Positions 23,069 to 64,000 of a stretch of DNA of 64,000 nucleotides are shown here, piece after piece. The number at the start of each line of letters is the position of its first letter. Within the stretch, counting starts at the first letter, position 1. The translations under genes were made by a program, and so were the position numbers. The DNA is from Mayamaea pseudoterrestris (Eukaryota): the NCBI GenBank assembly GCA_027923505.1, contig BROI01000033.1, positions 62,001 to 126,000 of the forward strand. Direction: 5' to 3'. The notes under the pieces were generated by a model. The model was not told where the DNA came from and made no database searches. It saw only the letters and a program-made list of their open reading frames with translations.

Positions 23069-23226
23069 AATGATCTTGTATTGAATATGATCCTCACTGT
23101 GCTTGCCTCTGGAGCAAACTCGGAAGATTTAGCGGAAGAATCTGTTTGGACGTCGCTGTTGCGCGCCGCGGCGTCACGCTAGTACGATTCATCCAATCAG
23201 ATCGATGAAACCTGTTGGGCCTTTTT

Positions 23227-23363
23227 TCAAAGTTATTGGCACTACTGTTCGATGCACAGTGCCAAAAACTTTGATATCTTTCAAAGTTTTTGGCACTACT
23301 TATTCAGCCACAGTAAACAACCGTTGAAAATCAAAGTTATTGGACTACTCTTTGATCCACAGT
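23227..23363. repeat. short intergenic direct/inverted repeat cluster in the divergent PFK/FkbM upstream region
   Basis: TCAAAGTT(A/T)TTGG(C)ACTACT..CACAGT at 23227, 23281, 23331; perfect 17-bp inverted repeat 23258-23274 / 23281-23297. Confidence 0.75.
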
Positions 23364-23547: not shown

Positions 23548-24522
23548 ATGGTCTCTCGAATATCCAATCCACGAGGAGCGCATCAGCGCACCCGGCGGTC
23601 CAGTTCCATGGTGGTGCTTATAGTTGGATTCATTGGCGGCTTTTCGCTCTCCAAACTGTTGGATCGAATTGTTATGAATGGAGATGAATCAAGAATATCG
23701 TATATACTTGCAAAGCAATTACCAAACACCAAGGACTATAGGAGTAGCGACAGAATCGTGTCGGATGCTCATGGATGGGGCACGATTCATGTCTTTTACG
23801 GCGAGGCGTCTGCAATCTTTGGCGACGACACATCGCAACAATTCTTTGCACAAGTCAAGCAGGACGAGATTGTGTTGGATCTAATGCGAGACATTACAGA
23901 CAGAAGCAAGGTCAAATCCCAGGATGAACACCCATTCTTTTTCATTGATTTGGCTGCCAACGATGCCAAAACACTCAGCAACACGCTCGCACTGGAGCAG
24001 CGTGGTTGGCAAGGCCTTTGCATTGAACCGAACCCTGCTTACTAGTATGGACTCGCGCATCGTCGCAACTGCACCGTGATTGGAGCGCTGATCTCCGACA
24101 AGGTGGCGCCAACGCAGGTCAAGTTCCGAGGCGTCTTTGGTGGAATCGTTGGACAAATGGATGAAAAGCTGGCAAACCGTTTGCACGAGCCGGATCGAAT
24201 CGAGGAAACACGATATACTGTGCCGTTCGTAACGCTCCTTGCTCAGTTTCGAGTGCCGAAAGTGATTGATTATATGAGTCTCGACGTGGAAGGTGCCGAG
24301 TTTCTTGTCATGCACGATTTCCCGTTCGACGAGTACACCATTCAAATATTGACGGTAGAGCGTCCATCCAAACGACTGAAATCGCTTTTGGAGAGCCATG
24401 GTTACGTCTTTTTGAAAGATCTTGCCTGGTGGGGCGAAACCTTGTGGGCGCATCAATCTACTGGGCTGTCGCCACTGCATCCAAAGATTGTCAAAATCAA
24501 GACTGAGGGCAGGGATCGATGA
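23548..24522 (+). pseudogene. FkbM-family (Methyltransf_21) type II membrane methyltransferase interrupted by an in-frame TAG at 24043-24045
   Basis: TM segment; FFAQVKQD, FFIDLAANDAKTLSNT..LE..GWQGLCIEPNPAY*YGLAHRRNCTV, IDYMSLDVEGAE; frame continues through the stop. Could instead be a recoded gene or base-call error. Confidence 0.7.
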
Positions 24523-25258: not shown

Positions 25259-25824
25259 TTTAGCTGATGACACTAGAGTATTGGCTAGCAAGTGGCGTTA
25301 ACGTGAGTGTATGACAAGTTGGATTCGAAAGAACAATGCAAGATCCATTATCCGCCAACTTGCGCGCGCTTCGGATCCGCAACTTCATCCACGACTAAAA
25401 CAATCCATCACGAGTCACGAGCAGTCACGCGTTGTCATGTCGTCCTTCCGCTACTCGGAGCTATCGTGACATTGCCAATCATCATTCTGTCTAGGGGGCT
25501 CGGTATATGGATGTGGTTGTGTTTAAATAGACTAGTACTCTTTTATGGTAAACTGTTAAATGTCTATTGTCTAACAAGAAACGCAAAGAAGTGTGATTGG
25601 ATACACAATTGGCTACAAACCAAGCCAACCAATTTGGCTATGAAATGTCACACTGGCAAGTGCCACAGCAAGTAGCTGGGCAGATGCATAAACAGTTAGC
25701 AGAATGGATCAAGGGATGTGGAGGAAAAGCTTGCAACTGATATATAGAATTGTTGTAGGAGGCAACAAAATAGGTGTGCACAAGGTTTGCTGGGAGGTGT
25801 AGTGGCTGGCAAGATACTACATAG

Positions 25825-26479
25825 GATTGGTGGTAACTTGTCACCAGTCTCAGCCAGCAGCTGCCATGCCCTTTAAATGCCCATACCTTGAGCCATGTGT
25901 ATGCCCCAATCAAGCCAGAATGGTGCTAACATCCTTATTTCAGGTGTGCTACAAGATGGGTTGCCTGGCTGGTGTCTCAGTGGACTGCAATGTGATTGGT
26001 GATAACTTGACACCAGTCTCAGCCAGCAGCTGCCATGCCTTTCAAATGCCCATACCTTGAGCCATGTGTATGCCCATATCAAGCCAGAATGATACTAACA
26101 TCCTTATTTCAGGTGAACTTCAAGGGAAGATGACTGGCTGCTGTATCAGTGGACTGCAATGTGATTGGTGATAACTTGTCACTTGCCATGCCTTTCAAAT
26201 GCTCATACCTTGAGCCATGTATATACCCAAATCAAGCCAGAATGGTGCTAACATCCTTATTTCAGGTGCGCTACAAAATATAATGACTGGCTGGTGTCTC
26301 AGTGGACTGCAATGTGATTGGTGATAACTTGTCACCAGTCTCAGCCAGCAGCTGCCATGCCTTTCAAATGCCCATACCTTGAGCCATGTGTATGCCCAAA
26401 TCAAGCCAGAATGGTTCAAACATCCTTATTTCAGGTGTGCTACAAGATAAGATGACTGGCTGGTGTTTCAGTGGACTGC
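25825..26479 (+). repeat. satellite family A (169-bp monomer), ~4 copies
   Basis: GATTGGTG(A/G)TAACTTG anchors at 25825, 25994, 26163, 26316 (169, 169, 153 bp). Confidence 0.95.
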
Positions 26480-29400
26480 TTGTTGGATCTGCAAGCTGAG
26501 TCTCACCATGGCACACATGGTGGTAGAGACTGAAATGGATGCTACTGAACAAAGCATTGGCCCATCAAGACAACAAACATGATTGAAAAGGATTTCAGGG
26601 CTCAGAAGGCAGCGCTGATGATCTTTATAGCCACAAAGTGTGCACTGCTGGCACATTCCACCATTGGTTGGATGTGCGGAGTCTCATGGCAAAGGGATGG
26701 GTTACACCCAAGGTGACAAGCCTATGAGTCCTAATCAAATTGAAACATAATGTTCGTTGTATTCCAGAATTGGCAGGCCATTCTGGCAGACAGAAGTGCC
26801 ATTGGAGGTGCACTGATAGCAGATCCAACAAGTTGTTGTCTCTGCTGAGTCCCACCATGGCATACGTGGTGTTGGAGACTGGAATGGGTGCAACTGACAA
26901 AAGCATTGGCTCATCATAATCAAACATGAGAAAGGATTCCAGGCTCGCTAGAAGGCAGCGCGATGATCTCCTGTAGCCAAAAAGGGTGCTGGCACATTCA
27001 ACCAGTATGGTGTGAGCGATGGGTGCACTGACAAAGCATTGAGTCCCGTGATGAATTGAGAACCAGCATAATGTTCTTTGTATTCCAGAATTGGCAGGCT
27101 TCTGGCAGTCAGAAGTGCCACTTGAGGTGCACTGCTACTGCAGATTCAACAAGTTGTTGAATCTGCAAGCCGAGTCTCACCATGGCACACATGGTGGTGG
27201 AGACTGAAATGGATGCAACTGACCAAAGCATTGGCCCATCATGACAACAAACATGAATCAGAAAAGTTTCAGGGCTCAGAAGGCAGCGCTGATGATTCCT
27301 GTAGCCAAAGGCCGCTGGCACATTCAACCATTGGAATGTGCGGAGTCTCATGGCAAAGGGATGGTTTCCACACCCAAGGTGACAAGCCTTTAAGTCCTCA
27401 TCAAATGAAAACACAATGTTCATTGTATTCCAATCTTGGCAGGCCATTCTGGCAGTCAGAAGTGTCACTTGGGTGCACTGCTAGCAGATTCAACAAGTTG
27501 TTGGATCAGCAAGCTGCGTCCCACCATGGCACACATGGTGGTGGAGACTGAAATGGATGCTACTGAACAAAGCATTAACCAATCAAGAAAACAAACATAA
27601 AATGAAAAGGATTTCAGGGCTCAGAAGGCAGCGCTGATGATCCCTGTAGCCAAAAAGGGTGCACCGCTGGCACATTCAACCATTGGTTGAATGTGTGGAG
27701 TCTCATGGCAAAAGGATGGGTTTCACACCCAAGGTGACAAGCCTTTGAGTCCTTATCAAATTGAAACATAATGGTTTTTGTATTCCAGAATTGGCAGGCA
27801 GTTCTCGCAGTCATAAGTGCCACTTGAGGTGCACTGCTAGCAGATCCAACAAGTTGTTGGATCTGCAAGCTGAGTCTCACCATGGCATACGTGGTGTTAG
27901 AGACTAGAATGGGTGCAACTGACCATAGCATTGGCCCGTCATGACACCAAACATGAATTGGAAAGGATTTCAGGGCTCAGAAGGCAGCGCTGATGATCCC
28001 TGTAGCCAAGAAGGGTGCACCGCTGGCACATTCAAAATTGAGTGAATGTGTGGAGTCTCTTGGCAAAATGATAGTTTCCACACCCAAGGTGACACGCCTT
28101 TGAGTCCTAATCAAATTGTAACACAATGTTCTTTATATTCCAGAATTGGCAGGCCATTCTGGCAGTCCGATGTGCCAATTAAGGTGCACTGCTAGCAGAT
28201 CCAACAAGTTGTTGGATTTGCAAGTATCACCATGGCATACGTGTCGGTGGAGACTGGAATGGGTGCAACTGAACACAAAGCATTGGCCAATCATGACACC
28301 AAACATGAATTGGAAAGGATTTCAGGGCTCAGAAGGCAGCGCTGATGATCCCTGTAGCCAAAATGGGTGCACCGCTGGCACATTCAACCATTGGTTGAAT
28401 GTGCGGAGTCTCATGGCAAAATGATGGTTTCCACACCCAAGGTGACAAGCCTTTGAGTCCCAATCAAATTGAAACATAATGTTCTTTGTATTCCAGAATT
28501 GGCAGGCCGTTCTGGCAGTCCAATGTGCCACTTGAGGTGCACTGCTAGCAGATCCAACAAGTTGTTGGATCTGCAAGCTGAGTCTCACCATGGCATACGT
28601 GGTGTTGGAGACTGGAATGGGTGCAACTGACCAAAGCATTGGCCCATCATGACACCAAACATGAATTGGAAAGGATTTCAGGGCTCAGAAGGCAGCGCTG
28701 ATGATCCCTGTAGCCAAAAAGGGAGCACCGCTGGCACATTCAATCATTGGTTGAATGTGCGGAGTCTCTTGGCAAAAGGATGGGTTCCACACCCAAGGTG
28801 ACAAGCCTTTGAGTCCTAATCAAATCGAAACACAATGTGCATTATATTCCAGAATTGGCAGACCGTTCTGGCAGTCAGAAGTGCCACTTGAGGTGCACTG
28901 CTAGCAGATCTAACAAGTTGTTGGATCTGCAAGCTGAGTCTCACCATGGCACACATGGTGGTAGAGACTGAAATGGATGCTACTGAACAAAGCATTGGCC
29001 CATCATGACACCAAACATGAATTGGAAAGGTTTTCAAGGCTCAGAAGGCAGGGCTGATGATCCCTGTAGCCAAAATGGGTGCACCGCTGGCACATTCAAC
29101 CATTGGTTGAATGTGCGGAGTCTCATGGCAAAAGGATGGTTTCCACACCCAAGGTGACAAGCCTTTAAGCCCTAATCAAATTGAAACATAATGTTCTTTG
29201 TATTCCAGAATTGGCAGACCGTTCTGGCAGTCAGAAGTGCCACTTGAGGTGCACTGCTAGCAGATTCAACAAGTTGTTGGATCTGCAAGCTGAGTCCCAA
29301 CATGACACACATGGTGGTGGAGACTGAAATGGATGCTACTGAACAAAGCATTGGCCCATCATGACACCAAACATAAAATGAAAAGGATTTCAGGGCTCAG

Positions 29401-32400
29401 AAGGCAGCGCTGATGATCCCTGTAGCTAAAAGGGTGCACTGCTGGCACATTCAACCAATGGTTGAATGTGCAAAGTCTCATGGCAAAGGGATGGTTTCCA
29501 CACCCAAGGTGACAAGCCTTTGAGTCCTAATCAATTTGAAACACAATGTTCGTTGTATTCCAGATTTGGCAGGCCATTCTGGCAGTCAGAAGTGCCACTT
29601 GAGGTGCACTGCTAGCAGATTCAACAACTTGGATGTGCAAGCTGAGTCCCACCATGGCATACATGGTGGCGGAGACTGAAATGGATGCTACTGAACACAG
29701 CATTGGCCCATCATGACACCAAACATGAATTGGAAAGGATTTCAGGGCTCAGAAGGCAGCGCTGATGATCCCTGTAGCCAAAATGGGTGCACCGCTGGCA
29801 CATTCAACCATTGGTTGAATGTGCGGAGTCTCATGGCAAAGGGATGGGTTCCACACCCAAGGTGACAAGCCTTTGAGTCCTAATCAATTTGAAACACAAT
29901 GTTCGTTGTATTCCAGATTTGGCAAGCCATTCTGGCAGTCAGAAGTGCCACTTGAGGTGCACTGCTAGCAGATTCAACAAGTTGTTGGATCTGCAAGCTG
30001 CGTCCCACCATGGCACACATGGTGGTGGAGACTGAAATGGATGCTACTGAACAAAGCATTGGCCTATCAAGACAACAAACATAAAATGAAAAGGATTTCA
30101 GGGCTCAGAAGGCACCACTGATGGTCCCTGTAGCCAAAAAGGGTGCACTGCTGGCACATTCCACCAATGGTTGAATGTGTGGAAGCTCATGGCAAAGTGA
30201 TGGTTTCCACACCCAAGATGACAAGCCTTTGAGTTCTAATCAATTTGAAACACAATGTTCGTTGTATTCCAGATTTGGCAGGCCATTCTGGCAGTCTGAA
30301 GTGCCACTTGAGGTGTACTGCTAGCAAATTCAACAAGTTGTTGGATCAGCAAGCTGCGTCCCATCATGGCACACATGGTGGTGGAGACTGAAATGGATGC
30401 TACTGAACAAAGCATTGGCCCATCAAGACAACAATCATGAAATGAAAAGGATTTCAGGGCTTGGAAAGCAGCGCTGATGATCCCTGTAGCCAAAAAGGGT
30501 GCCCCACTGGCACATTCAACCATTGGTTGAATGTGTGGAGTCTCATGGCAAAGGTATGGTTTCCACACCCAAGGTGACCAGCCTTTGAGTCCTAATCAAA
30601 TGGAAACACAATGTTCTTTGTATTCCAGTGTTGACAAGTGGTTCTGGCAGTCAGAAGTGCCACTTGAGGTGCACTGCTAGCAGATTCAACAAGTTGTTGG
30701 ATCTGCAAGCTGCGTCCCACCATGGCACACATGGTGGTGGAGACTGAAATGGATGCTACTGAACAAAGCATTGGCCTATCAAGACAACAAACATAAAATG
30801 AAAAGGATTTCAGGGCTCAGAAGGCAGCGCTGATGATCCCTGTAGCCAAAAAGGGTGCACTGCTGGCACATTCAACCAATGGTTGAATGTGCGGAGTCTC
30901 ATGGCAAAGGGATGGTTTCCACACCCAAGGTGACAAGCCTTTGAGTCCTAATCAATTTGAAACACAATGTTCGTTGTATTCCAGTGTTGACAAGTGGTTC
31001 TGGCAGTCTGAAGTGCCACTTGAGGTGCACTGCTAGCAGATTCAACAAGTTGTTGGATCTGCAAGCTGAGTCCCAACATGACACACATGGTGGTGGAGAC
31101 TGAAATGGATGCTACTGAACAAAGCATTGGCCCATCATGACACCAAACATAAAATGAAAAGGTTTTCAGGGCTCAGAAGGCAGCGCTGATGATCCCTGTA
31201 GCCAAAAAGGGTGCACTGCTGGCACATTCAACCAATGGTTGAATGTGCGGAGTCTCATGGCAAAGGGATAGGTTCCACACCCAAGGTGACGAGCCTTTGA
31301 GTTCTAATCAATTTGATACACAATCTTCGTTGTATTCTAGTGTTGACAAGTGGTTCTGGTAGTCTGAAGTGCCACTTGAGGTGCACTGCTAGCAAATTCA
31401 ACAAGTTGTTGGATCAGCGAGCTGCGTCCCACCATGACACACATGGTGGTGGAGACTGAAATGGATGCTACTGAACAAAGCATTGGCCCATCAAGACAAC
31501 AATTATGAAATAAATAGGATTTCAGGGCTCAGAAGGCAGCGCTGGTGATCCCTGTAGCCAAAAAGGGTGCACTGCTGGCACATTCAACCAATGGTTGAAT
31601 GTGCGGAAGCTCATGGCAAAGGGATGGGTACCACACCCAAGGTGACAAGCCTTTGAGTCCTAATCAAATTGAAACACAATGCACTTTCTATATCATTGTT
31701 GGCAAGCAGTTCTGGCAGTCAAAAGTGCCACTTGAGGTGCACTGCTAGCAGATCCAACAAGTTGTTGGATCTGCAAGCTGCGTCCCACCATGGCACACAT
31801 GGTGGTGGAGACTGAAATGGATGCTACTGAACAAAGCATTGGCCCATCAAGACAACAATCATGAAATGAAAAGGATTTCAGGGCTCAGAAGGCAGCGCTG
31901 ATGATCCCTGTAGCCAAAAAGGGTGCACTGCTGGCACATTCAACCAATGGTTGAATGTGCGGAGTCTCATGGCAAAGGGATGGTTTCCACACCCAAGGTG
32001 ACAAGCCTTTAAGTCCTCATCAAATGAAAACACAATGTTCATTTTATTCCAATCTTGGCAGGCCATTCTGGCAGTCAGAAGTGTCACTTGAGGTGCACTG
32101 CTAGCAGATTCAACAAGTTGTTGGATCTGCAAGCTGAGTCTCACCATGACACACATGGTGGTGGAGACTGAAATGGATGCTACTGAACAAAGCATTGGCC
32201 CATCAAGACACCAATCACGAAATGAAAAGGATTTCAGGGCTCAGAAGGCAGCGCTGATGATCCCTGTAGCCAAAAAGGGTGCACTGCTGGCACATTCAAC
32301 CAATGGTTGAATGTGCGGAGTCTCATGGCAAAGGGATGGTTTCCACACCCAAGGTGACAAGCCTTTGAGTCCTAATCAATTTGAAACTCAATGTTCGTTG

Positions 32401-34752
32401 TATTCCAGTGTTGACATGTGGTTCTAGCAATCTGAAGTGCCACTTGAGGTGCACTTCTAGCAGATCCAACAAGTTGTTGGATCTGCTAGCTGAGTCCCAC
32501 CATGGCACACATGCTGGTGGAGACTGAAATGGATGCTACTGAACAAAGCATTGGCCCATCAAGACACCAATTATGAAATGAAAAGGATTTCAGGGCTCAG
32601 AAGGCAGCGCTGATGATCCCTGTAGCCAAAAAGGGTGCACTGCTGGCACATTCAACCATTGGTTGAATGTGCGGAGTCTCATGGCAAAGGGGGAGGTTTC
32701 CACACCCAAGGTGATGAGCCTTTAAGTCCTCATCAAATGAAAACACAATGTTCATTGTATTCTATTATTGGCAGGCCATTCTGGCAGTCAAAAGTGACAC
32801 TTGAGGTGTACTGCTAGCAGATTCAACAAGTTGTTGGATCTGCAAGTTAAGTCCCACCATGGCACACATGGTGGTGGAGACTGAAATGGATGCTACTGAA
32901 CAAAGCATTGACACAGCAAGAGACCAATCATGAAATGAAAAGGATTGCAGGGCTCAGAAGGCAGCGCTGATGATCCCTGTAGCCAAAAAGGGTGCACTGC
33001 TGGCACATTCAACCAATGGTTGAATGTGCGGAGTCTCATGGCAAAGGGATGGGTTCCACACCCAAGGTGACAAGCCTTTGAGTCCTAATCGGATTGAAAC
33101 ACAATGTTCTTTTTATTCCAGAATTGGCAGACCATTCTGGCAGTCAGAAGTGTCACGTGAGGTGCACTGCTAGCAGATTCAATGAGTTGATGGATCTGCA
33201 AGGTGAGTCCCACCATGGCACACATGGTGGTGGAGACTGAAATGGATGCTACTGAACAAAGCATTGGCCCAGCCAGACACCAATCATGAAATGAAAAGGA
33301 TTTCACGGCTCAGAAGGCAACGCTGATGATCCCTGTAGCCAAGAAGGGTGCACTGCTGGCACATTGAAGCAATGGTTGAATGTGCGGAGTCTCATGGCAA
33401 AGGGATGGTTTCCACACCCAAGGTGACAAGCTTTTGAGTCCTAATCAAATGGAAACACAATGATCATTGTATTCCAGATTTGGCAGGCCATTCTGGCAGT
33501 CAGAAGTGCCACTTGAGGTGCACTGCTAGCAGATTCAACAAGTTGTTGGATCTGCAAGCTGCGTCCCACCATGGCACACATGGTGGTGGAGACTGAAATG
33601 GATGCTACTGAACAAAGCATTGGCCCATCAGGACACCAATTACGAAATGAAAAGGATTTCAGGGCTCAGAAGGCAGCGCTGATGATCCCTGTAGCCAAAA
33701 AGGGTGCACTGCTGGCACATTCAAGCAATGGTTGAATGTGCGGAGTCTCATGGCAAAGGGATGGTTTCCACACCCAAGGTGACAAGCCTTTAAGTCCTCA
33801 TCAAATGAAAACACAATGTTCATTGTATTCCAATCTTGGCAGGCCATTCTGGCAGTCAGAAGTGCCACTTGAGGTGCACTGCTAGCAGATTCAACAACTT
33901 GGATGTGCAAGCTGAGTTCCACCATGGCACACATGGTGGTGGAGACTGAAATGGATGCTACTGAACAAAGCATTGGCCCATCAAGACAACAATCATGAAA
34001 TGAAAAGGATTTCAGGGCTCAGAAGGCAGTGCTGATGATCCCTGTAGCCAAAAAGGGTGCGCTGCTGGCACATTCAACCAATGGTTGAATGTGCGGAAGC
34101 TCATGGCAAAGGGATGGGTTTCACACCCAAGGTGACAAGCCTTTGAGTCCTAATCAATTTGCAACACAATGCACTTTCCATATCATAATTGGCAAGCAGT
34201 TCTGGCAGTCAAAAATGCCACTTGAGGTGCACTGCTAGCAGATTCAACAAGTTGTTGGATCTGCAAGCTGAGTCCCACCATGGCACACATGGTGGTGGAG
34301 ACTTAAATGGATGCTACTGAACAAAGCATTGGCCCATCATGACACCAATCATGAAAGGAAAATAAATTTAGGGCTCAGAAGGCAGCGCTGATGATCCCTG
34401 TAGCCAAAAAGGGTGCACTGCTGGCACATTCAACCATTGGTTGAATGTGCGGAGACTCATGTCAAAGGGATGGTTTCCACACCCAAGGTGACAAGCCTTT
34501 GAGTCCTCATCAAAAGAAACACAATGTTCATTGTATTCCAGATTTGGCAGGCCAGTCAGAAGTGCCACTTGAGGTGCACTGCTAGCAAATCCAACAAGTT
34601 GTTGGATCTGCTAGCAGAGTCTTACCATGGCATATGCGGTGGTGGAGACTGGAATGGGTGCAACTGGCCAAATCATTGGCCCATCATTTAGACACCAAGA
34701 TGAATTGGAAAGGATTTCAGGGCTCAGAAGGTAGCACTGATGATCCCTGTAG
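26480..34752 (+). repeat. satellite family B, 356-bp dimeric unit (170+186 bp), ~23 copies
   Basis: GATTTCAGGGCTCAGAAGG anchors at 27610, 27966, 28318, 28674, 29030, 29386 ... 34364, 34713; modal spacing 356 bp. Confidence 0.97.
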
Positions 34753-34754
34753 GG

Positions 34755-35115
34755 GTGTTTGATTTGGGTGTATACATGGCTTGCTGTAGGGGCATTTGAA
34801 TGTCACGGCGTCTGCGGGTTGAGACTGGTGACAAGTTGTCACCAATCACATTGCTGTCTACTGAGACACCAGCCAAGCATACCATCTTGTAGCGCAGCCG
34901 GTAAAATGATGTTGGCACCATTCTGGTATAATTTGGGTGTATACATGGCTTGCTGTAGGGGCATTTGAATGTCAAGGCATCTGTGGGCTAGACTGGTGAC
35001 AAGTTGTCCCCAATCAAATTTCTGTCTACTGTGACACCATCCAAGCATACCATCTTGTAGCACAACCTCAAAAATGATGTTAGCACCATTCTGGTATAAT
35101 TGGGTGCATACATGG
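34755..35115 (-). repeat. satellite family A, inverted, subfamily A2, ~2 copies
   Basis: Reverse complement of A (GAGACTGGTGACAAGTTGTCACCAATCACATTG); TTTGGGTGTATAC at 34763 and 34932 (169 bp). Confidence 0.9.
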
Positions 35116-36197
35116 GTGGTGGCTGGCAGGCAGCATGGGTTTCAGCTACTCAAATACACTCAATTGCCATAGCCATGGGCCAGGTAGTTTCAATATGAGT
35201 CTCTGCGGTTGCTGGGCATGCATTAAGAATGTAGGATGTGCAATCCATTCAATGGTATACCAACAAACCCTCTAGTAAAATGACCGGGGTTGGGTTCAGC
35301 ATGGGTGTTAGCTACTCAAACACACTCAATAGCCATAGCCATGGGCCAGCCAGCTTCAATAGAAATCTCTGCGGTTGCTAGACATGGATTGCGATCAATT
35401 CAATGGTATACCTTCAAACCCTTCAGTAAAATGACTGGGGTTGAGTGGGATTTGGTGGTGGATGGCAGGCAGCATGGGTTTCAGCTTTTCAAACACACTC
35501 AATAGCATAGCCATGGGCCAGCCAGCTTCAATATGAGTCTCTGCGGTTACTAGGCATGAGGTAAGAATGTAGGATTAGCAATCCATGCAATGGTATACCT
35601 TCAATCCCTCCTGTAAAATGATTGGGGTTAGGTTCAGCATGGGATCCAGCTACTCAAACACACTCAATAGCCATAGCCATGGGCCAGCCAGCTTCAATAT
35701 GAGTCTCTGCGGTTGCTAGGCATGCATAAAATATGTAGGATGTGCAATCCATTCAATGGTATACCATCAAACCCTCCAGTAAAATGACCGTTCTTCGGTG
35801 GGGTTTATTGGTGGCTGGCAGGAGCATGGGTTTCAACTACTCAAACACACCCAATAGCCATAGCCATGGGCTAGCCAGCTTCAATATGAGTCTCTGTGGT
35901 TGCTAGGCATGGATTAAGGAGTTAGATGTGCAATCCATTCAATGATATACTTTCAAACCTTCCAGTTAAATGACCGGGGTTGGGTGGGGTTTGGTGGTGG
36001 CTGGCCGGCCGGCAGCTCTCAAACACACTCAATAGCCATAGCCATGGGCCAGCCAGCTTCAATATGAGTCTCTGCGGTTGCTAGGCATGGATTAAGGATC
36101 TAGGATGTGAAATCCATTCAATGGAATACCTACAAACCCTCCAGGAAAATGTCGGGTTAGGTTCAGCATGGGTTTCAGCTACTCAAACACTCTCAAT
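35116..36197 (+). repeat. satellite family C (~165-187-bp monomer), ~6 copies
   Basis: ACTCAATAGCCATAGCCATGGG-type anchors at about 35158, 35324, 35497, 35662, 35849, 36027, 36191. Confidence 0.92.
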
Positions 36198-36625
36198 CGG
36201 TGACAACTTGTCACCAGTTTCAGCCAGCAGCTGCCATGCCTTTCAAATGCCCATACCTTGAGCCAGGTGTATGCCCAAATCATGCCAGTACGGTGCTAAC
36301 ATCCTTATTTCAGGTAAACAACAAGATAAGGTGACTGGCTGGTGTCTCAGTGGACTGCGATGTGATTGGTGATAACTTGTCACCAGCCAGCAGCTGCCAT
36401 GCCTTTCAAATGCCCATACCTTGAGCCATATGTATGCAGCAATCAAGCCAAAACGGTGCTAACATCCTTATTTCAGGTGTGCTACGAGATAAGATGAGTG
36501 GCTGCTGTCTCAGTGGACTGCAATGTGATTGGTGATAACTTGTCACCAGTCTCAGCCAGCAGCTGCCATGCCTTTCAAATGCTTATACCTTGAGCCATGT
36601 GTATGCCCAAATCAAGCCAGAATGG
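36198..36625 (+). repeat. satellite family A, forward, ~2.5 copies
   Basis: GGTGA(C/T)AACTTGTCACC at 36199, 36368, 36531; same variants as the 25825 array. Confidence 0.93.
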
Positions 36626-36729
36626 CGACTAGCAAGGCAAACCTCGGACAATTGAAGTGCTGTCAACCAGTATTATGGCAGGAAATATTAAATTACACTG
36701 CACGCAAGTAGCTAGTTTTAGAAAGATAA

Positions 36730-40220: not shown

Positions 40221-40551
40221 GGCGATGGTACTTGTAGTTGTATAAGTCAAAGTGTCAGTTCTCAAATGCTTGCAGTTGCGTCGTTGCGTCGAGATCTAGT
40301 ACTGCACGGCTGCACGACCTGAAAATACGAGCTGCCCGTTTCGCGAATCTTTTCCGTCTTTGTAGATACATGCTAGATGCTGGTGTTTCCGTAGATTGGC
40401 CAAACCTAGTGAACAAAGTTGTTCGTTGGCAACTGCGACCAATTTTGTCGAGCGAAAATTCGGGCATCGGAATTTCGAAATCTAGTTTAATCGAACCGGT
40501 AAGGAATCCGACGAAGCGCTCACTCGTTTCAGTTTCATACTAACAGTAAAC

Positions 40552-40701
40552 CCTTTAGGCTTCGTTTTCACTGGCACCCGTTTCACACATATGCCTTTAG
40601 GCTTCGTTTTCACTCATAAGCCTTTAGGCTTCGTTGTCACTGGCACTCGTTTCACACATAAGCCTTTAGGCTTCGTTTTCACTGGCACTCGTTTCATACT
40701 A
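40552..40701 (+). repeat. 42-bp minisatellite, ~3.6 copies (one internally deleted)
   Basis: CCTTTAGGCTTCGTT(T/G)TCACT at 40552, 40594, 40621, 40663. Confidence 0.9.
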
Positions 40702-41049
40702 TTGCCTGCTCAGATGGGTCTCGTGCACGTTTTGCGCATGGCAGATCTTGCGCTGCTGGTGGTTGCATACTGCTACTGCATCTCATCCGTCGTTACTTTG
40801 CCATCAGCCCCTCTACGTTGCCTCATTGCAGTCTGATTTTGCAACTGAAGACTCTTTAGAATGCCGCCGCCTCCGCCGCCGTCCAAGTCGTACCTGTGGA
40901 AGTTTGATGCTACGACTCCGAAAACATCACACTGGTTATGACTCGCATCCAGACGTTCGACAAAATCAGAGGCGCTGTGGAGGTTTACCCAGACGCAATC
41001 CATCGTTTGAAGTAGAATCAAGACAATACAGAATTAATCAGTAAACACG

Positions 41050-62936: not shown

Positions 62937-63610
62937 GTAAGTTCTCACCAGTCACATTACAGTCTACTGAGACACCAACCAGGCATACCATCTTCAAACG
63001 CAGACTAAAAAATGATGTTGGCATTATTCTGGTGTGATTTGGGTGAATACATGGCATGTTATATGGGCAATTGAATGACAAGGCATCTGTGGGCTGAGAC
63101 AAGTGAGAAGTTCTCACCAATCACATTGCAGTCTACTTATTTAACTACCGGGCATACCATCTTGTAGCTCAGACTGAATAATGATGTTGGCACCATTCTG
63201 GTGTGGTTTAGGTGTATACATGGCATGTTATATGGGCAATTGAATGACAAGGCATCTGTGGGCTGAGACTGGTGAGAAGTTCTCACCAGTCACATTGCAG
63301 TCTCCAAAAACACACCATGCCCTCCATCGTGTAGCGCAGCCTGTAAAATGATCTTGGCATCATTCTGGTGTAATTTGGGCACCTACAGGGCATGCTGAAG
63401 GGGCGTTTGAATGTCATGGCATCTGCGGGCTGAGACTGGTGACAAGTTGTCACCAGAAACATTGCCATCCCCTGAGACACCAACCAAGCCTACCATCCTG
63501 TAGCGCAGCTGGAATAATGATGTTGGTACCATTCTGGTGAATTTTGGGCACCTACAGGGCTTGCTGTAGGATCGTTTGAATGTCATGGCATCTGTGGGCT
63601 GAGACTGGTG
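62937..63610 (-). repeat. dispersed array of satellite family A (A2 subfamily, inverted), ~4 copies
   Basis: GTT(C/G)TCACCA anchors at 62941, 63110, 63279, 63446 (169, 169, 167 bp); matches 34755-35115. Confidence 0.93.
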
Positions 63611-64000
63611 TTGCAGGATGCGAACGAAAACAGCGAAAATCGGGCAAGTCACACCGAATGTCCGATAGGGTGACACAGCGGCACTCGCGGCTCACCACAG
63701 CCTCACGATCGCGTGATGCGTGGCAGCGACGGCTTCGAAGCGATTCAACAAGTATATTGCTGAAACTAGTGCGATATAGAGTAGAAACAAGCAGACTTAC
63801 TAAGCTTGAAGAGTTAAGAAAGCGATTTATTCGTCTCTCGTATTGTAGCAACTGCAAGCTTGGATTGGCCATCCAAGGACAGCTACAAGCGAAAGGTGCA
63901 ACGATTTGATTTACAAGTTACAAGATTAACACTGTCTTGAGACTCATTGCCTCGGCATAGAGACTTTATCGACGAAGAGTACTATTGATTTACGAAGTAA

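Follow-up and report, generated by a model that had tools for sequence, protein, structure and literature searches.

The window, by which we mean the whole 64,000-nucleotide stretch analysed here (contig C33:62001-126000, from a genome of 30.6 Mb in 41 contigs), is gene-dense with a G+C content of about 48%, and ordinary eukaryotic genes surround its satellite locus. Judging from its sequence, the 11.2-kb block between 25485 and about 36647 is a putative non-autonomous Helitron-like element that carries a satellite, named B here, as cargo. The parts of the block, in window positions, are as follows.

25485..25524, forward strand: left terminus (the 3' end when the partner's RepHel gene sets the reading direction)
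25525..25824, forward strand: unique subterminal sequence, common to other satellite-bearing copies
25825..26479, forward strand: C satellite, 169 bp, about 4 units with their own shorter palindrome; the repeat most often found beside these termini
26480..34752, forward strand: B satellite array, about 23 dimers of 356 bp (halves of 170 and 186 bp)
28378..28404, unstranded: palindrome S1 (B1 in the initial annotation), with near-invariant 10-bp outer arms and a variable 7-base middle
28548..28574, unstranded: palindrome S2 (B2 in the initial annotation), a paralogue of S1, relaxed, with many one-armed changes
32457..32489, unstranded: extended S2 copy, a perfect 16-1-16 palindrome
34757..35115, reverse strand: inverted C-family array, 2.1 units, with a palindrome at 34823-34847
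35116..36197, forward strand: D satellite, about 178 bp, about 6 units, without a long palindrome
36196..36625, forward strand: C array resumed, 2.5 units
36627..36648, forward strand: right terminus with a small terminal hairpin, partly decayed in the window copy

The subterminal sequence is 77-85% identical to copies on contigs C15, C9, C1, C4 and C26, and the C satellite runs from left to right in all ten loci in which it adjoins a terminus. The left C array breaks off at unit position 161 and the right one restarts at position 168, and the 9.7-kb stretch of B, inverted C and D would thus be a single insertion that cost the C array 6 bases.

Other features of the window lie outside this block. 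A separate inverted C array of 4 units at 62939-63610 has no termini, and includes a mirrored variant of the C palindrome at 63264-63294 (15-1-15 with one mismatch). From about 63899 to the window end at 64000 and beyond, some 600 bases belong to a repeat that also flanks an E-family array on contig C17, at 90% identity. A short dispersed repeat at 23222-23363, present also on contigs C23 and C2, holds a near-perfect 19-2-19 palindrome at 23258-23297, and a 27/42/69-bp minisatellite at 40549-40710 resembles repeats within a duplicated element on contig C6. Adjoining the element at about 23680-24522 is a methyltransferase-like ORF, which we take to be FkbM-like; with its apparent in-frame TAG near 24044, it appears to be a pseudogene or to reflect a sequencing error. 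LTR-like elements starting with TG occur within or against several satellite arrays (with edges on contigs C22, C1 and C19). A sequence recurrent at array ends, considered as a candidate satellite terminus, has the same TG start, and we take it instead for the end of an LTR-type element that inserted there.

The B satellite and its palindromes

B is satellite DNA: abundant, head-to-tail and non-coding, with a 356-bp period and no ORF of 200 aa in the array of the window. The initial annotation had described two 13-1-13 palindromes, each preceded by a shared motif and alternating every 170 and 186 bp through about 46 half-units. Its description is accurate. The sequences it gave for S1 and S2 are exact and form perfect 13-1-13 palindromes, its upstream motif and spacing hold, the array amounts to about 23 dimers, and the extended copy is a perfect 16-1-16. 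S1 and S2 differ at arm positions 4, 7 and 12, with mirrored changes at 24, 21 and 16, and they differ at the centre base as well. An ungapped scan of the array finds 41 palindromes (20 S1 and 21 S2), 18 of them perfect (13 S1 and 5 S2); the half-units outside the 41 have deletions or heavier changes. The longest arm in 20,000 simulated 200-base sequences with the dinucleotide make-up of the unit is 11, thus the B palindromes are not the product of chance. The two half-units are homologous, with a global alignment score of 91 compared to 33 +/- 8 for shuffles, and S1 and S2 are therefore paralogues. As single-stranded DNA, S1 is predicted to fold with -13 kcal/mol and S2 with -15.9 kcal/mol. 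Genome-wide there are 1107 exact matches to the degenerate box and 690 to the S1 outer arms, with 0 matches for the control in each case; in the metagenome collection, neither the box nor the left terminus has an exact match. We set aside a structured-RNA reading, since there is no Rfam match near the gathering score in 25300-29500, and dropped HSE-like and tRNA-box-like readings of the arms after comparing them by eye with consensus motifs.

B is one of at least 11 satellite families with units of 162-186 bp, which abut one another in mosaic blocks, and arrays are found at several places per contig. Long palindromes are confined to B (with its H variant) and C. The initial annotation's suggestion of one site per nucleosome is a candidate reading, and most families with units of this size lack a long palindrome. 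There is no motif common to the 11 families: two nine-base words occur in three families, compared to 0.85 in simulations, which is not significant. Whole-monomer homology between B and C is not detected (z 0-3). S2 (28548-28600) and the C palindrome at 34823-34847 are identical in the 9 bases at their centres and have a 7-base word close by in common, in units that cannot otherwise be aligned; these words, not significant against the simulated null, are possibly a relic of a common origin. The observed/expected CpG ratio is 0.19 in the B array of the window and 1.08 in the rest of the window. Across satellite arrays it is 0.24 compared to 1.08, with a TpG/CpA ratio of 1.68. Such depletion of CpG with an excess of TpG/CpA is what a long history of CG methylation would be expected to leave.

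Mirrored changes and constraint on the arms

The proposal made from the sequence of the window was that symmetry rather than sequence is maintained, with arm covariation across monomers as the test. We typed boxes in 862 kb of DNA, where 560 candidate boxes, after dropping 19 of uncertain orientation, leave 541 copies, from 24 arrays per site; the scan excluded copies with more than 4 mismatches in the outer arms and so is biased towards conserved ones. Perfect palindromes are 123 of the 281 S1 copies and 49 of the 260 S2 copies. Summed over arm positions, the 541 copies have 625 one-armed changes, 41 mirrored changes and 12 that are double but unmirrored, so that for present-day variation the covariation test fails. 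Most of the mirrored changes (34/41) are a single one, at S1 position 12 in the H subfamily. This subfamily forms one clade on a tree from which the palindromes were excluded, and more copies (72) have the change in one arm only. For S2 position 7, 8.0 mirrored copies would be expected if the arms varied independently, and only 3 are found. Whole arrays are fixed for asymmetric forms of the palindrome.

The proposal holds in part. Over long times symmetry has been maintained, as all three S1/S2 arm differences are paired, and there is one paired S1 variant in the H subfamily and one paired C variant. The words "rather than sequence" do not stand among the copies, where one-armed changes dominate, asymmetric arrays have been fixed, and the S1 outer arms are near-invariant in sequence. 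The three S1/S2 pairs are common to all sampled subfamilies and are therefore old. Template switching, as described in PMC8794818, can mirror several changes and invert loops; since one copying event can thus produce several mirrored changes, the three pairs are not three independent proofs. The C palindrome (466 copies) includes one mirrored variant in 15 copies, mostly with inverted centre and with at most 3 one-armed forms, and this is what a single template switch would give, by analogy with that mechanism (PMC8794818).

The constraint becomes visible on a tree of 24 array groups, from which groups with fewer than 3 copies were left out. The outer 10+10 bases of S1 have one change in 20 sites, compared to 1.40 per site elsewhere (about 28 expected). 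A value as low is not reached in 20,000 random draws of 20 sites, nor in 217 windows of like shape, where the minimum is 7. The inner 7 bases of S1 have 17 changes, a figure inflated by the fact that the groups had been split on that segment. The S2 outer arms have 16 changes, none of them mirrored (p 0.02, or 0.06 without CpG columns), and the flanks of S2 are conserved to the same degree. The unfiltered set of 234 dimers points the same way as the filtered copies, with a conservation of 0.93 in both boxes and 0.83 elsewhere. For the C palindrome, the outer arms have one change in 12 sites compared to 1.00 per site, and its right flank is equally still.

These counts bear on hairpin-templated correction, which the initial annotation named, when it is taken as a neutral process in which the arms copy each other at replication and array amplification does the rest, with no constraint. 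The mechanism is a documented one (PMC8794818, as described there), the paired C variants come without a full set of intermediates, and on the tree the S1 centre flips from T to A at four separate places. As proof of inversion the flips had to be discarded, because T-to-A makes up 36% of the T changes within arrays, which leaves them as weak evidence. If unbiased correction erased half of the new changes and mirrored the other half, about 14 paired changes would be expected in the S1 stems, where we find none and one single change; S2 has 16 changes, again none paired. Correction alone does not account for this result, and we consider it an unlikely explanation of the palindromes. The S1 stem is therefore constrained, whether in its structure or in its sequence; S2 is relaxed.

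Stem invariance cannot separate structure from protein binding. A second alternative is then a function for the host, with S1 as a two-fold symmetric (10-7-10) site, or a cruciform, to which a protein of chromatin or of the centromere binds; Helitrons would then only spread it. Invariant S1 arms around a freer middle would fit such a site, as would the 162-186 bp units of all the satellite families and the arrays at several places per contig, and there are precedents in Tyba of Rhynchospora and in the 19-bp box repeats of Meloidogyne, as reported in bioRxiv 10.64898/2026.01.17.700053 and PMC13404089. Long palindromes are absent, however, from most of the other satellite families, no word is common to the families beyond the simulated null, and S2 tolerates decay. 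Binding alone also does not predict the junctions at the tip of the palindrome described below. We regard a host function as rather unlikely, if the first of the alternatives to keep in mind.

Termini, partner elements and junctions

The 340 bases preceding the first repeat are found again ahead of other arrays, with a sharp boundary common to 13 loci that have unrelated flanks. Several blocks, among them that of the window (at 36627-36648), finish in another shared end that has a small hairpin; the same end is found in copies on contigs C24, C1, C4, C5 and C8. A search with the PF14214 profile finds four RepHel genes in the genome, and two RepHel elements, C5:402351-436646 and C8:397.9-411.0 kb, are bounded by exactly these termini with the Rep matches between them. 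The window termini match those of the C5 element in 35 of 40 bases on the left and 19 of 22 on the right. In both elements the RepHel ORF reads toward the left terminus. Satellite-bearing copies share further sequence with the right ends of these elements: 633 bp at 94% between the copy on contig C4 and the C5 element, and 193 bp at 98% between the copy on contig C1 and the C8 element. The terminus profile was trained on the same copies and used to locate ends; significance is taken from direct identity.

The RepHel of the C5 element is an open frame of 1931 aa with DUF6570, Rep and PIF1 domains. All three of the long ORFs scanned have these three domains and none has a Pfam match to an AP-endonuclease domain, which rejects a strict Helentron. 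Patterns that we presume to be those of the HUH and catalytic-tyrosine-like motifs are matched in the C5 RepHel, and the one we presume for Walker A is unmatched. There are 55 relatives of the RepHel in public data. Each of the eight complete elements is flanked by A at either end and then by a pyrimidine, and none has a target-site duplication; all eight flanks can be read as T^T on one strand or as T^(T/C) on the opposite one. The insertion target of HLE2 is TT or T(T/C) in the accounts of PMC11417382 and PMC13085455, the first of which also describes DUF6570 as an HLE2 marker. At the right end, the C5 copy has a hairpin with a 5-bp stem, weak by energy (z -0.7), and in the window copy a 3-bp stem is predicted; the left end has no hairpin. 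For terminal inverted repeats, the best match is 6 bases in the C5 element and 7 in the C8 element, compared to asymmetric ones of about 11-18 bases for HLE2. From these features, the block of the window is a putative non-autonomous Helitron-like element that would work like HLE2; we do not file it as an HLE2 member because its inverted repeats are only 6-7 bases. HLE1 (the canonical Helitron, with a 3' hairpin followed by CTRR and an A^T target) is rejected, as the shared sequence runs beyond CTAG at both ends and the left end is without hairpin. A search of four sequencing runs for an empty site finds no joint across the 470-bp copy on contig C6. The depth of C units at that copy is about 10,000 times that of the flanks in two runs, which is not a copy number.

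Several observations concern the content of the partner elements. The C5 element includes an internal tandem duplication of about 9.4 kb (C5:402351-421148), of which C20:249661-259045 is a 96-97% identical copy with the left terminus only. Three MBD-domain ORFs, one of them just under the Pfam cut-off, lie between the termini at C5:402351-436646, with homologues within the C8 termini, and this position makes the MBD-domain genes Helitron cargo. Other cargo (L102 5430-6254, and L105) consists of overlapping open frames on both strands, of 275 and 242 aa, present in the C5, C8 and C20 copies; the one of the two that was scanned has no Pfam match. A distant RepHel, open and 1823 aa long, is found at C12:207853-220278, at 1.1 kb from a satellite block of families F, B, L and F; the ends of its element were not found.

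Carriage of B by a Helitron is the case at this locus, a setting that the initial annotation did not recognise. Of the 25 blocks that contain B, only 3 lie near a terminus of this family, two of those three having been found by terminus search, and carriage is therefore not established as the main or general route of B. Of the 15 B blocks closed on both sides, 12 are without terminus. The usual neighbour of the termini is C, not B, and no other terminus family is found among the 71 flanks of blocks without ends. The palindromes are unlike the terminal hairpin of the element, thus no link between the boxes and RepHel or another enzyme is established.

We mapped 60 ends of B arrays, of which 31 adjoin another family or orientation and 29 are in unique DNA. 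Altogether 16 of the 60 fall within palindromes (p 0.018). In a split by partner type, chosen after that result, 13 of the 31 junctions to other satellites are within palindromes compared to 4.8 expected (p 0.0004), whereas for ends in unique DNA the count is 3 of 29 compared to 4.5 expected (Fisher p 0.008 between the two classes). Six of the 31 junctions lie at most 3 bases from the palindrome centre, where 1.2 are expected. If only sharp B junctions are considered, those within palindromes are 12/29 and 13/28 under two scoring schemes. The joints are mostly blunt or with a few bases of overlap or filler. The B array of the window starts one base to the right of an S2 centre. C junctions have no excess at the C palindrome (4/30), and small deletions are not enriched in either palindrome. 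Larger internal breaks are in palindromes in 43 of 186 cases compared to 28.7 expected, although these breaks are not independent. Both palindromes are frequent joining points to other repeats, and they look like working parts of the spread of the repeat, not like ornament maintained by self-correction.

Two further alternatives invoke a particular enzyme or element. The suggestion that the palindromes are sites of a tyrosine-type site-specific recombinase, already made in the initial annotation, would agree with the 10-7-10 layout and with the junctions near the centre. No PF00589 match is found in the genome, which is not proof of absence; the junction partners are unrelated and have no matching half-site, and the breakpoints scatter over about 20 bases. 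Taken together, this makes a recombinase site very unlikely. If instead the half-unit were a MITE, with the palindromes as back-to-back terminal inverted repeats, one would understand why the array of the window starts next to an S2 centre. The ends in unique DNA do not exceed expectation within palindromes, however, and closed blocks have no consistent target duplication; we find this reading scarcely credible.

Spread of the repeat and related systems

Our preferred reading, which we hold on balance to be somewhat probable, sees the palindromes as a hairpin or cruciform box under constraint. The satellite around it would be old, of nucleosome size and probably CG-methylated, at this locus the cargo of a non-autonomous Helitron-like element, and folding back and breakage at the box would seed the spread of the repeat. 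A B repeat that becomes single-stranded, by rolling-circle copying or at stalled forks, or that is extruded, would allow the box to fold back. The folded box would be cut, or would stall the polymerase or switch template, near its tip, and the broken end would be joined bluntly to another satellite to produce new mosaic arrays. Units with an intact S1 stem would be excised, amplified and re-inserted more often, a form of selection that would act on the repeat itself. The mirrored differences between S1 and S2, three in number, predate all sampled subfamilies and were probably fixed by rare arm-to-arm template switches under that constraint.

Helitron-carried satellites are already known in oysters, Paramecium, Rhynchospora and Meloidogyne, and each ingredient of the system is known from animals, plants or ciliates. 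The Cg_HINE Helentrons of Crassostrea gigas, as described in PMC7492417, are like the B locus in having dispersed arrays of 160-180-bp repeats between Helitron-type termini. In that description each element has one, rarely two, repeat families, usually with fewer than 6 units, unlike the several families, both orientations and tens of units found here, where most B blocks are without termini. The HLE2 'reverse' elements FoHeli3-5 and the proto-Helentron share with the partner elements a DUF6570-Rep-PIF1 transposase without endonuclease, a hairpin only at the end upstream of the ORF, and no target duplication, in the accounts of PMC11417382, PMC5148889 and PMC4067079. Their terminal inverted repeats are given there as 12-16 bases, compared to 6-7 matching bases here, and the descriptions at hand in the same three sources mention no satellite cargo, unlike here. 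The clam satellite phBglII400, in the account of PMC5139131, also has an internally dimeric monomer with palindromes in which breakpoints cluster (13/16 in the longer one). Its palindromes measure 10-12 bp in all, whereas here they are 27 bp and the clustering is only for junctions to other satellites.

In Paramecium, non-autonomous Helitrons are described (PMC13085455) that resemble the block of the window in the order terminus, several satellites, terminus, with ends shared with ORF-bearing copies and with ordered and mosaic satellite arrays as cargo. According to that description they are telomere-targeted, form a separate clade and have shorter units, whereas the locus here is interstitial among genes. 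Tyba/TCR1 in Rhynchospora and the 19-bp-box repeats of Meloidogyne are, as here, dispersed arrays associated with Helitrons, with conserved boxes at junctions of repeat families, and the Tyba units are 172 bp, as reported in bioRxiv 10.64898/2026.01.17.700053, PMC13404089 and PMC3694981. Those repeats are centromeric by CENH3 data in these reports, whereas B is described here by its sequence. The dyad symmetries of centromeric satellites in PMC5889037 are likewise symmetric sites in nucleosome-sized repeats, proposed there to form non-B DNA; as described they are shorter than 10 bp, compared to the 13-bp arms and the measured constraint on one of two paralogues here. Our search, which covered main texts in a largely open-access literature, turned up no report of diatom satellites that are palindromic or carried by Helitrons. 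A more far-reaching reading of S1 is as a cis-element defined by both sequence and symmetry that would specify chromatin (CENH3 loading) or be recognised by the Helitron machinery, in which case the Helitron-spread mosaic arrays would be dispersed repeat-based centromere units in a diatom-like alga, and the methyl-CpG-binding genes between the termini of the partner Helitron could read these CG-depleted arrays. We regard it as decidedly unlikely.

At this locus an extensive satellite system, dispersed through a small algal genome, is tied to a specific Helitron family whose transposase frame is still open. Within the same unit one paralogue is frozen and the other is decaying, in hundreds of copies with mappable junctions, which makes B a natural test of whether satellite palindromes are kept by selection, by self-correction, or by a role in spreading.
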